Assembly: GCA_965197525.1 (NCBI GenBank)
Contig: OZ240211.1
Location: 1,632,001-1,696,000, forward strand
Source of the DNA: Nitrosopumilus sp.
GTDB lineage: Archaea > Thermoproteota > Nitrososphaeria > Nitrososphaerales > Nitrosopumilaceae
Direction: 5' to 3'
DNA: 64,000 nt
The position numbers and the translations under genes are program-made. Positions 16,130 through 20,003 of this stretch are shown piece by piece (within the stretch, counting starts at the first letter, position 1; each line of letters starts with the position of its first letter). Below the pieces are notes generated by a model. That model saw only the letters and a list, made by a program, of their open reading frames with translations, was not told where the DNA came from and searched no databases.

Positions 16130-17014
16130 ATGGAATTTTACAAATCAAGAAATCTAGATAAAAAAACATCCAAGAGATACCCCAAGAGTGATAGAAGGCC
16201 TACTCGTTCCTTTAGAAATTCAAGAGATGACAAGCCTTCTAGCTATTCTCGTAATCATAACCGCACTGAACAATCCACAACCGTAGTCTGTTCTGATTGT
16301 GGTATAACGTGCAATGTTCCCTTTATTCCAAGAAATAGCAAACCTATCTACTGCAATGACTGTTTTAAACAAGATAGATTCAACGATTCCGATGACTCCC
16401 GCCACTCACGCGACAATAACAGCTCTAGGCATCGTAGTTATAACCGCACTGAACAATCCACAACCGTAGTCTGTTCTGATTGTGGTACGAAATGCAATGT
16501 TCCCTTTATTCCAAGAAATAACAAACCTATCTACTGCAATGACTGTTTTAAACAAGATAGATTCAACGATTCCGATGACTCCCGCCACTCACGCGACAAT
16601 AACAGCTCCCGCCACTCACACAAAAACGAATCAAGTAGTAGGTCCAAATCTAAGAAATTAACTGATAAATCTTTACAAAAACGGGAGCGTTTTTTTTCTA
16701 ACGGATCAGATAAATTCTATAAAACCATCCAAGAAAAATTATTTGAAATTTTGGGTGGTAAAATATGTTCTAATTGCGGCTTTAGAGATGAACGAGCTTT
16801 GAAAATTAGTTCCATATATGGCGATACACTAGATGACGACAACAACAAGCGTGGAACATTTGCATCTTCTCTAGGTAAATACATCTCTGACCCCAAGACT
16901 GCCAGAGATGAATTAAAGGTATTATGCTTGAATTGTAATCAAATCCGAGAACCTTTATCAAAACCAGATAAAGGCCATATAAAACCGAAAAAGAGTAAAT
17001 ATTTTCCTAGATGA
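16130..17014 (+). CDS. CxxC-x17-CxxC domain protein (two copies) with C-terminal zinc ribbon
   Basis: CSDC-x17-CNDC twice, Arg/Ser/Asp low complexity, CSNC...CLNC; likely start ATG 16130. Confidence 0.8.
   Translation: MEFYKSRNLDKKTSKRYPKSDRRPTRSFRNSRDDKPSSYSRNHNRTEQSTTVVCSDCGITCNVPFIPRNSKPIYCNDCFKQDRFNDSDDSRHSRDNNSSRHRSYNRTEQSTTVVCSDCGTKCNVPFIPRNNKPIYCNDCFKQDRFNDSDDSRHSRDNNSSRHSHKNESSSRSKSKKLTDKSLQKRERFFSNGSDKFYKTIQEKLFEILGGKICSNCGFRDERALKISSIYGDTLDDDNNKRGTFASSLGKYISDPKTARDELKVLCLNCNQIREPLSKPDKGHIKPKKSKYFPR
16257..16608 (+). repeat. near-identical 183-bp-period in-frame tandem duplication
   Basis: 16257-16425 vs 16440-16608, few substitutions. Confidence 0.95.
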
Positions 17015-17073
17015 TATGTAAAATTTATCGAACATGTGTTAACATTTTAATGTCATTATTTTAAAACTAAATT

Positions 17074-17157
17074 ATGAATGATGACTTTAAGGCAATTGGT
17101 GTATCTCTGATTATCATGGTTGGAGCTGTAACGTTATACGCTATGCTTGGTCTATAG
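17074..17157 (+). CDS. 27-aa membrane peptide
   Basis: MNDDFKAIGVSLIIMVGAVTLYAMLGL*; TTAAAA box upstream. Confidence 0.45.
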   Translation: MNDDFKAIGVSLIIMVGAVTLYAMLGL

Positions 17158-17167
17158 ATTTATTCTT

Positions 17168-17191
17168 GGTTCTGTGTAAACATCGGGACTT
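17168..17191 (+). repeat. terminal inverted repeat (tnpB-distal end)
   Basis: GGTTCTGTGTAAACATCGGGACTT. Confidence 0.92.
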
Positions 17192-17208
17192 ATTTTTAAC
17201 ATAAAAAA

Positions 17209-18525
17209 TTAAACCGCCAATGTTGACTTTGACATATCGACTATTTGGATTACCGTTCTGCTGGGTTCCAACATCGTTGACTCAAAAGTATCAAACTTTG
17301 CTTCACTTATGTCACCTTTACTATCCATAAACCTAGGGGACAGCTTGTTTTTTATATTTATGGGGGCTACTACATCCCTATCCATAAATAATCCACAATT
17401 ATCACACGACTTTTTACGACTGTATTGAACCTTGTCCTCTTGGAGTTTCTTTCCGCATTTTGGACAGTCCGTGCTCGTGTTTTTTGGATCTACGTTGTAT
17501 ACAGGAATACCATACCACTTGGCTTTGTACTCTACTTGTCTTTGGAATTCGTATTGTTGCCAACCGTTCATTTTACTTCTGTATTTTTTGCCTGTATTTT
17601 TGTATTTTTCATTGCCTTTGCTTTTTTTGTTTTTATTTTTTGTGTTGTTGTTTTCGTAGTTGTTTTTCTTTTTGTCTTTTGTAATATTTTTCCATTTTTT
17701 ACCTTTTGTGTTTTCTTTTGTATATCTTTTTTTTATTCCTCTTAGATCCTCTAATACTATAATTGTTTTATTTTTAACCGCTTCTTTTACAATATGATTT
17801 GATATTCTATGTGTTGATTGATTTGTTCTATTATACATTCTTTTATTTTTTTCTTCCCAAAAGTCACCTTTTACTCTACGATCATTTCTTCTAAATCCAG
17901 ATCTGGCTTGTATTGTATTTTTTTTAATTGATAATATTTTTTTAGTCTTGTAAAATACAACTTTTTTCTCATTTCCACAAGTTACATTTCTAAGGTTTCT
18001 GTCTATTCCTACTATATCAATACATTCTATTTCTTCTACTTGTTTTGATATACAAAAACTAATTGATTTATTATTCATTGAAAAAGATTGTACTTTTATA
18101 GTATCATTAGATAATATTTTTTGTGTATATTCTGCTAATAACACATTAATTGGATTTCTATTCTTATATGGAACTGTCATTAAACAACCATTATGTTTTA
18201 TGCCATAACAGTTTGTAATGAATGGTTTTTTTACAAATGGGTCTTTAACCTTAACACCTCTTTTTATTGATTGTTTTCTATTTGATAGTATACCTGCCGC
18301 CCTTGATATTGCATTTATTTTATATGAACCTAAAATATCATAGTGACGTAATTCATGATAACATAAATAAGATAATCGTTTCATATTATGTGTGTTTTCT
18401 TTTAGTCCTACTTTAATACAATAATTGACCATTTTTGTAAATATGTTCATTATTTCTTTCAAGTCTTCATTTGGTGTGTATTCTTGTTTAATTGATTTTA
18501 ATGCTTTATATTTTTTATTTTTCAT
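17209..18525 (-). CDS. tnpB: TnpB RNA-guided endonuclease (IS200/IS605 OrfB family)
   Basis: RuvC-I GIDRNL, RuvC-II VLEDL, QVEYKA..GIPV..V.P..TS, Zn finger CPKC/CDNC, RuvC-III DRD; D-E-D triad intact. Confidence 0.93.
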   Translation of the reverse strand: MKNKKYKALKSIKQEYTPNEDLKEIMNIFTKMVNYCIKVGLKENTHNMKRLSYLCYHELRHYDILGSYKINAISRAAGILSNRKQSIKRGVKVKDPFVKKPFITNCYGIKHNGCLMTVPYKNRNPINVLLAEYTQKILSNDTIKVQSFSMNNKSISFCISKQVEEIECIDIVGIDRNLRNVTCGNEKKVVFYKTKKILSIKKNTIQARSGFRRNDRRVKGDFWEEKNKRMYNRTNQSTHRISNHIVKEAVKNKTIIVLEDLRGIKKRYTKENTKGKKWKNITKDKKKNNYENNNTKNKNKKSKGNEKYKNTGKKYRSKMNGWQQYEFQRQVEYKAKWYGIPVYNVDPKNTSTDCPKCGKKLQEDKVQYSRKKSCDNCGLFMDRDVVAPINIKNKLSPRFMDSKGDISEAKFDTFESTMLEPSRTVIQIVDMSKSTLAV

Positions 18526-18585
18526 TTTATTATATTACTAAGATATTTTTTATTTAAACTCTTTTTTAGTAAATTATATCTGATA

Positions 18586-18609
18586 AAGTCCCGAAGATTA
18601 CACAGAACC
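18586..18609 (-). repeat. terminal inverted repeat (tnpB-promoter end)
   Basis: minus strand GGTTCTGTGTAATCTTCGGGACTT. Confidence 0.92.
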
Positions 18610-18891
18610 TTATTCTTTAACCATTTCTACAACATTACCAATAATTGTAGTTGAAGTTAGTTTATGCTCTTTATCAGTTACTGATTGAATAAAATCAGCA
18701 AATATCTCTACTTCTTGTTCATTTTTCAGTAAAATACTATGAGCTGATTTATCTTTTAAAGAAATAATTAGTTCATTTTTTACTACGTTTAAAATTCCTA
18801 CAACATACGTCTCTTTTCCATCTTTAATGAATGTCAAACTTGCCAATTTTTGAGCTTCATATTTATCATCACATGTGATGCTAACCTTCAT
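18610..18891 (-). CDS. conserved hypothetical protein
   Basis: 93-aa ORF directly downstream of trpS; its stop codon lies inside the TSD. Confidence 0.7.
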   Translation of the reverse strand: MKVSITCDDKYEAQKLASLTFIKDGKETYVVGILNVVKNELIISLKDKSAHSILLKNEQEVEIFADFIQSVTDKEHKLTSTTIIGNVVEMVKE

Positions 18892-18893
18892 TT

Positions 18894-20003
18894 TTATTTA
18901 TTCTCCAAAAGAAACTGTTCTATCTGTTCTTTTGCCTTTTCTCTTCTCTCTTGATGCACTGCAAGAAATTTGTTGATCTTTTCAATTAGGATGGCTTTTA
19001 TCTCACCTGAGAGTAATTTTCCTGACTTGTAGTCGTCATAAATTGTTCTCAATTTATTGTCATCTGGTTCGAAGAATATTCTTAGATACTGATAAGATAC
19101 ATCTATGTCTGGATTCCCACCAAGTTTTCTATGCTGTGTAATATCCTGCTGCCCTCCTGAGAATGCATTATTGATCTTCCTTTTTACCATATTAGGTGTA
19201 TCAGTTGTGTAAATTGTACCTTTTTGATCAGACGCTGACATCTTTCCTCCGGGTCTCTCCAATCCTGGGATCATTATATTGTGAATTAGTGCAGGTTTTT
19301 GCCTTCCAATCTTCGGTGCAATATCTCTTGTTAATCTAAAATGTGGATCTTGATCAACTCCCAATGGAATTAGAACTGGGTTATTCTCAATAAAGCATGG
19401 AGCAGACTGCAGTGATGTATAAAAGATCATTCCTAGATTCGTCTCATTCGTAAACCCAAACGTTGCTTTTGTATTTGAAAAGTTAATCTTCTTTGCCACT
19501 TGAGCTGCAATTGGATAAAGTGTTTGTATATTTTTTGTATCGATAATAATTTTTGTTTTTTCAGGTTTGAAACCTAGTGCAATAAAATCCAACGCATTCT
19601 CATATGCAAATTGTCTTGTATCTTCCAAAGTAAGATCAGGTTTTGAATAAAACTTTTCATCATCTGTTAATTGAAAATACATATTGACATCAAATTTTTC
19701 TTGTAGCCATCTTGCAAATACCCATGGTACTAGATGGCCAATATGTGTATGTCCTGAAGGCCCTCTTCCTGTATATAAAAAGAATTTACTACCTTTCTCG
19801 TATTCATCAATGATTCTATTCAACTCTCTGTGAGAAAAAAATACGCCTCTTTTGAGCATAAAATGGCCTTCTCCTGTAATTTTATTGATTCTTTTTAGTA
19901 GATCTGGCGATATTTTTTCAGTACCAAACCTTTTGATTAGTTTATCATAGTCAATATCGCCCTCAACGTGCCAAGGCGTAACAATAAAATCATCTGACGG
20001 CAT
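18894..20003 (-). CDS. trpS: tryptophanyl-tRNA synthetase
   Basis: YTGRGPSGHTHIGH, GVDQDPHFRLTRD, KMSAS. Confidence 0.97.
   Translation of the reverse strand: MPSDDFIVTPWHVEGDIDYDKLIKRFGTEKISPDLLKRINKITGEGHFMLKRGVFFSHRELNRIIDEYEKGSKFFLYTGRGPSGHTHIGHLVPWVFARWLQEKFDVNMYFQLTDDEKFYSKPDLTLEDTRQFAYENALDFIALGFKPEKTKIIIDTKNIQTLYPIAAQVAKKINFSNTKATFGFTNETNLGMIFYTSLQSAPCFIENNPVLIPLGVDQDPHFRLTRDIAPKIGRQKPALIHNIMIPGLERPGGKMSASDQKGTIYTTDTPNMVKRKINNAFSGGQQDITQHRKLGGNPDIDVSYQYLRIFFEPDDNKLRTIYDDYKSGKLLSGEIKAILIEKINKFLAVHQERREKAKEQIEQFLLENK

Follow-up and report, generated by a model that had tools for sequence, protein, structure and literature searches.

We describe here a transposable element at positions 17160-18617 of a 64,000-nucleotide stretch of DNA (the window) from the archaeon Nitrosopumilus sp., taken from contig OZ240211.1 (positions 1,632,001 to 1,696,000) of assembly GCA_965197525.1. 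The element is about 1.44 kb long in a Nitrosopumilus-type host whose genome is complete (2.21 Mb, 39.6% GC), and its only content is the gene tnpB and a predicted guide-RNA scaffold, enclosed between IS6-like ends. The two terminal inverted repeats (TIRs), each of 24 nt, lie at 17168-17191 and 18586-18609; they are identical at 22 of 24 positions with two mismatches, each is the single mate of the other in the window, and the same search gave 0 matches in 100 shuffles. The pair also appears in the inverted-repeat listing of the window (92% complementary, 1394 nt apart). An exact 8-bp target-site duplication (TSD), TTATTCTT, abuts both TIR tips at 17160-17167 and 18610-18617. The tnpB gene encodes 438 aa (17209-18525, minus strand) and is the only long open reading frame (ORF) between the TIRs, leaving no room for a transposase.

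All features of the element were placed on the minus strand. The TIR at 18586-18609, found by inverted-repeat search, is the left, tnpB-proximal end, and the TIR at 17168-17191, found by inverted-repeat search and folding, is the right, tnpB-distal end. On the left the TSD copy (18610-18617) holds the stop codon of an adjoining 93-aa ORF, and comparison of flanks places a TTA on the tnpB strand at 18618-18620, that is at -11 to -9 from the left end, which resembles the motif TTR and is treated below as a candidate target-adjacent motif (TAM). On the right the TSD copy (17160-17167) reads AAGAATAA on the tnpB strand, is present as a single copy in the empty sites of relatives and would form the first 8 nt of a putative guide. 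Tail alignment and RNAalifold define a conserved omega-RNA-like scaffold that overlaps the 3' end of tnpB (17228-17344), and folding gives a terminal hairpin (17176-17227, minimum free energy -13.0 kcal/mol) between an internal arm after the conserved scaffold and the interior of the right TIR.

The 438-aa protein matches Pfam PF07282 (Cas12f1-like_TNB) at 9e-21 with 74 bits against a cut-off of 26, and the NCBIfam model guided_TnpB at 9e-25 with 88 bits, below the cut-off of 100; Cas12f models were also matched. The closest solved relatives by PDB profile search are Cas12f and ISDra2-type TnpB (9nzq and 7wju, at 1e-12 to 1e-13). In an alignment of the window copy with seven relatives the RuvC residues D175, E259 and D384 and the cysteines of the CxxC...CxxC zinc finger (C354, C357, C374 and C377) are invariant. 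The window copy is the only one of the aligned copies to carry a Lys/Asn-rich low-complexity insertion of about 37 aa, located between RuvC-II and the zinc finger (17593-17703, alignment columns 275-311). An earlier note on this DNA had described the 24-bp TIR pair with 22 of 24 matches, the exact 8-bp flanking duplication, tnpB as the sole gene with no transposase, and an intact RuvC D-E-D triad, and each of these statements held.

The 4.3-kb surroundings of the element were compared with 30 related genomes. In many congeners the alignments of the left and right flanks overlap by exactly 8 bp, and an empty site reconstructed from the flanks and one TSD copy aligns end to end in nine congeneric genomes, each of which contains a single TTATTCTT-like 8-mer. 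The insertion is real, and relatives have the clean empty site that the earlier note had proposed to confirm. The surroundings are of housekeeping type, with convergent genes on either side of the element and a class-I tRNA synthetase next to it. Insertion took place at the stop codon of the 93-aa ORF, which the duplication preserves. The TTA at 18618-18620 arises from a synonymous GTT (Val) codon of the same ORF. At this position the nine empty-site relatives read TCA (five), TAA (two) or, in the rest, TGA or CAA, and their empty sites would therefore be without the TTR motif. In contigs of four DNA sequencing runs from one study, probably the source sample, the empty-site joint was not seen and both junctions are bridged; these contigs carry no information on mobility. 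A hydrophobic ORF of 27 aa on the plus strand (17074-17157) ends 3 bp short of the TSD copy at 17160-17167, and the aligned relatives conserve its sequence.

The window copy is one of many. Across the host genome we found 35 full-length tnpB copies together with about 14 C-terminal fragments, and both ends could be located in 33 copies, all of them tnpB-only units of 1.28-1.44 kb with TIRs of 24-26 nt. These TIRs begin with GGTTCTGT or a one-base variant (GGCTCTGT) and form several subfamilies that share the 8-nt tip and a CG(G/A)G core; the tips of one subfamily begin GGTTCTGTTGCA. Perfect 8-bp TSDs, all different from one another, flank 21 of the 33 elements. About nine miniature derivatives (259-497 bp) retain the TIRs and the tnpB 3' scaffold region, three of them with perfect TSDs. 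Further TIR-bounded copies with TSDs of their own, which the earlier note had proposed to look for, are hence abundant in this genome. Within this set the window copy is a singleton lineage, with 67-69% TnpB identity to the other copies.

Two other observations on tnpB in this genome may be recorded. The remnants of the gene are almost all C-terminal, with the scaffold-bearing 3' part preferentially retained, including in the TIR-bounded miniatures. The genome also holds a second, unrelated TnpB family, whose proteins of about 522 aa are encoded in elements of 1,637 bp bounded by GGGAATTA TIRs and flanked by 8-bp TSDs; these lie among other places at 545581-547217, 874687-876323, 879513-881149 and 1029182-1030818 (host coordinates, G000:C1, as for all loci outside the window given below).

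A transposase sharing the same ends is encoded elsewhere in the genome. The autonomous element at 746475-748444 is 1,970 bp long, has TIRs identical at 29 of 30 positions and a TSD CTATTGTG, and the first 18 nt of its TIR are identical to the tnpB-proximal TIR in the window. Its 378-aa transposase (746963-748099) scores 42 bits with Pfam DDE_Tnp_IS240, where the cut-off is 27, and has additional zinc-binding domains at its N-terminus. The earlier note had assigned the ends to IS6 while keeping IS1 among the alternatives; of the NCBIfam models IS6 is indeed the best (2e-29) and IS1 the next (1e-16), although the IS6 score of 103 bits lies below the cut-off of 125. The tips GG(T/C)(T/A)CTG, the 8-bp TSD and an IS6-type transposase that could act in trans all agree with an IS6-like element, and we take the tips to resemble those of IS26 and IS257.

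Two further copies of the partner element in the genome are interrupted or truncated, and a single intact autonomous partner with clear ends is documented there. Four more distant IS6-like transposase genes (28-43% identity to the partner) gave no ends in GGTTCTGT-anchored or general inverted-repeat searches. The partner transposase type occurs in 27 of 120 sampled congeners, and two congeners (L089 and L099) have autonomous elements with TIRs that agree over about 20 nt with the TIR of family A, the main tnpB family. The second copy of the partner element in the host (1956395-1960520) is 4,126 bp long with TSD TTTAATAG, a split transposase gene and about 2 kb of other ORFs inside. At 918000-921500 two outward-facing GGTTCTGTGTAATCTTCGGGTGCT tips surround a 1.3-kb segment. 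Beside these tips lie the truncated end of an IS6-like transposase and two copies, partial or full, of a DNA-methyltransferase-like gene, and the locus looks as if these elements had rearranged it.

The same layout was found in five other Nitrosopumilales genomes with TnpB identities of 44-68%. A protein search returned 864 homologues at E <= 1e-20, those with names being overwhelmingly from Nitrosopumilales, and four of the 864 were looked up for ends and TSD. Perfect 8-bp TSDs flank the copies of N. ureiphilus CP026995.1 (at about 1.4106-1.4134 Mb; TnpB 53% identical to the window copy, TIRs of the GGTTCTGT type), of a Nitrosotenuis metagenome-assembled genome (MAG; 46%, TIRs of the GGCTCTGT/GGTTCTGT type) and of a Nitrosotalea MAG (44%, TIR tip GGCACTGT); the fourth, a metagenome copy (65%), has TIRs and no clean TSD. 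The exact scaffold motif is present in at least 4 of the 120 sampled congeners, a lower bound as the motif drifts, and it has 18 matches in OZ245003.1, a Nitrosopumilus sp. MAG. The sponge-type Thaumarchaeota MAG RHO2_bin_25 also has tnpB elements. Given that the ends are shared by such diverged genomes, the association is old and clade-wide rather than a recent capture. The earlier note had proposed that a DDE-mobilised element captured TnpB; the copies, the partner and the empty site bear out the association, and in place of a single capture we find it family-wide across Nitrosopumilales.

Two elements of OZ245003.1 (L046 and L047, at 1.3247 and 1.4511 Mb) are inverted copies with reciprocal 8-bp flanks, TAGAAACT and TTATGTTA being swapped between them. 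This indicates an inversion of about 126 kb through recombination between the copies or through intramolecular replicative transposition; homologous recombination explains the pair equally well. Among the 33 copies of the host genome no reciprocal-flank pairs were found, nor any reciprocal TSD halves among the 12 that have no TSD.

We then considered the 3' end of tnpB as a source of guide RNA. Conservation across subfamilies runs to a shared motif ending ...GTCGATATGTCAAAGTC, which is followed by 35-100 nt of subfamily-specific sequence. RNAalifold applied to 17 diverse tails gave 39 pairs, 10 of them with compensatory changes as against 2-4 in shifted controls. The proportion of paired cells was 97.3%, compared with 28-41% for shifted partners, and 500 column shuffles reached at most 94.4%. 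The stretch specific to each subfamily folds, in 10 of 12 subfamilies, onto the interior of the right TIR with the tip ACAGAACC remaining single-stranded. In the window copy the TIRs differ at two positions, and at both the right-end base pairs with the internal arm. Predicted duplexes between an arm and its own right TIR were lower in energy than cross duplexes (-13.1 vs -9.0 kcal/mol), and the own duplex ranked first or second in 7 of 15 cases; this lends weak support to a hairpin design, as the energies are only moderately discriminating because the TIRs share sequence. No Rfam family matched 16800-19000 at E <= 1.

These data bear on whether the TIRs and tnpB belong together at all. An IS200/IS605-type tnpB element might have inserted into a pre-existing IS6-derived miniature inverted-repeat transposable element, in which case the two would be unrelated. 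We found nothing specific in favour of such an event. The same ends occur on 33 of 33 located elements and on the copies in five other genomes (TnpB identity 44-68%). In most copies the distance from the tnpB stop to the right tip is 12-58 nt (extremes -1 and 92 nt), and the scaffold pairs with the TIR. Copies with IS605-type hairpin ends, which the earlier note had named as the mark of an insertion of this kind, were looked for in this genome and the five others and none were found. We therefore regard this origin as effectively refuted.

A separate question is whether the window copy itself still functions, or is a decaying passenger whose TnpB has been inactivated by the insertion in a family that is active as a whole. 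It is the only copy of its own lineage at 67-69% identity to the rest, it has the 37-aa K/N-rich insertion, and its TIRs are identical at 22 of 24 positions, all of which would fit decay. The ORF is intact, however, with every catalytic and zinc residue kept, the TSD is perfect, both TIR differences are compensated in the right-end hairpin, and TTA stands at the TAM position. On balance we think decay unlikely for this copy.

The flanking DNA was examined after orienting all elements by tnpB, with positions counted outward from the tnpB-proximal (left) end. Of the 33 left flanks, 26 have T at position -11 (the others A), 30 have T at -10 and 31 have A or G at -9, and no mirrored motif was found on the right flank of these 33 elements. 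The resulting TTR immediately precedes the TSD on its 5' side, at a distance of 8 bp from the left end. All 25 elements of this genome with perfect TSDs, miniatures included, read W-T-R (19 TTR and 6 ATR), and the chance probability for T-R alone in 25 of 25 is about 3e-21. The T-R pair is likewise present in 8 of 8 TSD-bearing elements of OZ245003.1 and in one element each of RHO2_bin_25, N. ureiphilus CP026995.1, the Nitrosotenuis MAG and the Nitrosotalea MAG. Over the six genomes T at -10 and A or G at -9 are found in 37 of 37 TSD-bearing elements, with -11 mostly T. Autonomous IS6-like elements served as a control: 1 of their 14 sides has T-R, no more than chance would give, and the difference from the tnpB elements has a Fisher p of 4e-11. 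This control comprises seven elements, as 23 of 30 loci in relatives gave no clear TIR with a simple search. The second TnpB family shows no TTR at -11 to -9 in its 7 left ends, a number too small to reveal a motif of its own.

In the canonical geometry of TnpB and Cas12 the TAM lies 5' of the guide-matching sequence. If the guide is the DNA of the right flank, the TTR stands exactly where a TAM would be expected, which suggests that it may serve as one. The putative 16-nt guides each occur once in the genome and are preceded there by ACC, and there would therefore be no self-target and the host copy would be protected. The left junction of the occupied site matches the putative guide for 8 nt only.

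A guide of another origin can be imagined, namely one fixed inside the element and supplied by the subfamily-specific stretch after the scaffold, with TnpB targeting TIR-like DNA or being domesticated and the flank motif being unrelated. Conservation among subfamilies does stop 35-100 nt before the right tip, and the stretch that follows resembles the TIR interior. The hairpin that this stretch forms with the right TIR, in 10 of 12 subfamilies, explains the resemblance. An internal guide also leaves unexplained why TTR stands on one side only and at precisely one TSD length from the left end, and the stretch within the element is preceded by AAG instead of TTR and differs from the left TIR within its first 7 positions. 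Hence we consider an internal guide very improbable.

Taken together, we think it likely that the element is a non-autonomous transposon with IS6-like ends that carries TnpB and its omega-RNA as cargo, with TTR acting as the TAM through which the empty site is cut again. The anatomy of the element, its multiple copies, the empty site, the partner transposase and the one-sided TTR are the observations on which this rests. According to this model an IS6-like transposase encoded elsewhere in the genome would insert the element and make the 8-bp duplication. The omega-RNA would be transcribed from the 3' end of tnpB, its last stem being built from the right TIR, and its guide would be the DNA just outside the right end, namely the TSD copy and the flank beyond. 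At an unoccupied site the TTR, which lies 8 bp outside the left end of an inserted element, would come directly 5' of the guide-matching sequence, and TnpB would be predicted to cut the empty site and not the occupied one. Repair from the occupied copy would then restore or spread the element. The enrichment of TTR might arise in two ways. Either sites without TTR are vacated while sites with TTR are refilled after re-cutting, or TnpB biases integration.

Several points weigh against this model. By the canonical, replicative route of IS6/IS26 transposition no donor site is left empty, and the absence of excision speaks against vacating and refilling by making the origin of an empty site hard to account for; vacating and refilling would need an archaeal IS6 clade that differs in this respect, or empty sites arising through DNA exchange or deletions mediated by the TSD. 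A TTR enrichment near 100% is more than weak retention after random insertion would readily produce, and the motif itself is only 3 nt long. Twelve of the 33 elements have no TSD. The sequence conservation of the scaffold is confounded by the overlapping coding sequence, and the low-complexity insertion unique to the window copy might impair its TnpB. Finally, the TIR of the partner matches that of the window copy over the first 18 nt only, and its transposase scores below the NCBIfam cut-off for IS6.

The completeness of the enrichment also raises the possibility that TTR is imposed at insertion, with TnpB (bound to the right end or to the RNA) or an asymmetry of the non-autonomous ends steering the transposase to a point directly 3' of TTR in one orientation. 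Even family A, whose near-identical copies mean that it has recently expanded, conforms to the T-R rule found in 37 of 37 elements, which would be hard to obtain from retention alone, and the motif is orientation-specific and absent from autonomous copies. Against this, integration 0-8 bp from a TAM would overlap the nuclease's own occupied site, and the miniatures without tnpB also show TTR, so that TnpB would have to act in trans. We know of no IS6 or TnpB mechanism that steers insertion to TTR, and we judge this explanation quite unlikely.

Whichever route produced the enrichment, the broader claim would be that a TAM lying one TSD length (8 bp) beyond the left end ties the function of TnpB and its omega-RNA to that of an IS6-like DDE transposon, either by restorative homing in a form adapted to a transposon that makes a TSD or by choice of the integration site; we put the chances of this at about even. 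Were it true, it would be the first natural evidence of an RNA-guided nuclease cooperating with a DDE transposase in prokaryotes. Under restorative homing only TTR-adjacent insertions would persist as permanent source copies. Either route would account for the burst to more than 35 copies seen in this archaeal genome of 2.2 Mb. The claim also offers a testable answer to the question of what use TnpB could be to a DDE transposon whose duplicated target varies, the TAM being shifted outward by the length of the TSD and the TSD starting the guide. The family provides natural replicates for such work (37 TSD-bearing elements in six genomes) as well as a cultured host, N. ureiphilus, and it demonstrates that streamlined archaeal genomes can harbour TnpB elements in high copy number. 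Furthermore, Cas12 descends from TnpB, which is itself a compact nuclease for genome editing, and a TAM as short as the predicted TTR could be attractive for editing.

To our knowledge the natural role of TnpB has been worked out only for IS605 and IS607, elements that leave no scar on excision and insert next to their TAM. Elements of the IS200/IS605 family have subterminal hairpin ends without TIRs, make no TSD and insert directly 3' of the TAM. Their IS1341-type members and palindrome-associated transposable elements (PATEs) resemble the present family in being tnpB-only, non-autonomous and multi-copy, with an omega-RNA overlapping the 3' end of tnpB and miniature RNA-only derivatives. In contrast, all copies here have TIRs of 24-26 nt, 21 of 33 have 8-bp TSDs, and insertion is not directly 3' of the candidate TAM. 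Cas12f (type V-F) includes the closest solved sequences, and its T-rich 5' PAMs (protospacer-adjacent motifs), which are NTTR or TTTR, resemble TTR; unlike Cas12f, the present system has no CRISPR array and its guide would come from the transposon flank.

With IS6/IS26, IS257/IS431 and archaeal IS6-like elements the family shares the GGTTCTGT/GGCTCTGT tips, the 8-bp TSD and a DDE_Tnp_IS240-type partner. It departs from them in that the element has no transposase of its own and that the partner has the additional N-terminal domains and the subthreshold IS6 score noted above. We know of no IS6 element that carries TnpB or shows a one-sided target motif. A search of the literature available to us found no paper naming an IS6 partner for TnpB, a TSD-displaced TAM, or TnpB in Nitrosopumilus.

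The earlier note had placed prokaryotic TnpB normally on Y1 or serine transposase elements; the view that these are its only carriers is out of date: six DDE-associated TnpB branches (DDE-1 to DDE-6) with inverted terminal repeats have been described, together with solo TnpBs mobilised in trans with the same ends (PMC10691335, Altae-Tran et al. 2023). The partner named in that paper is IS630, a lack of TnpB clusters of more than 30 copies is noted, and its main text has no whole-word match to IS6 (PMC10691335). A 2026 review names ISL2, IS630 and IS1031 as partners and discusses why DDE-TnpB associations are rare (PMC13565253). Like the DDE-1 to DDE-6 TnpBs, those described here lie within inverted terminal repeats with the tnpB 3' end near the transposon end, and solo TnpBs have the ends of a transposase element; the differences are the IS6-like partner, the 35 full-length copies in 2.2 Mb and a candidate TAM displaced by the TSD, a feature that the 2023 paper does not describe. 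Fanzors, the eukaryotic homologues of TnpB, are likewise RNA-guided RuvC nucleases carried as cargo by DDE transposons with TIRs and TSDs. In these the 5' TSD, of fixed sequence (TA, TTAA), is part of the TAM while the 3' TSD is part of the scaffold (PMC13565253). In the present family, by contrast, the sequence of the 8-bp TSD varies and would provide the first 8 nt of the guide, with the conserved motif upstream of it. TnpB in DDE elements with TIRs is thus already known; what is new here is the IS6-like partner, the high copy number and the TAM-like motif displaced by the length of the TSD.

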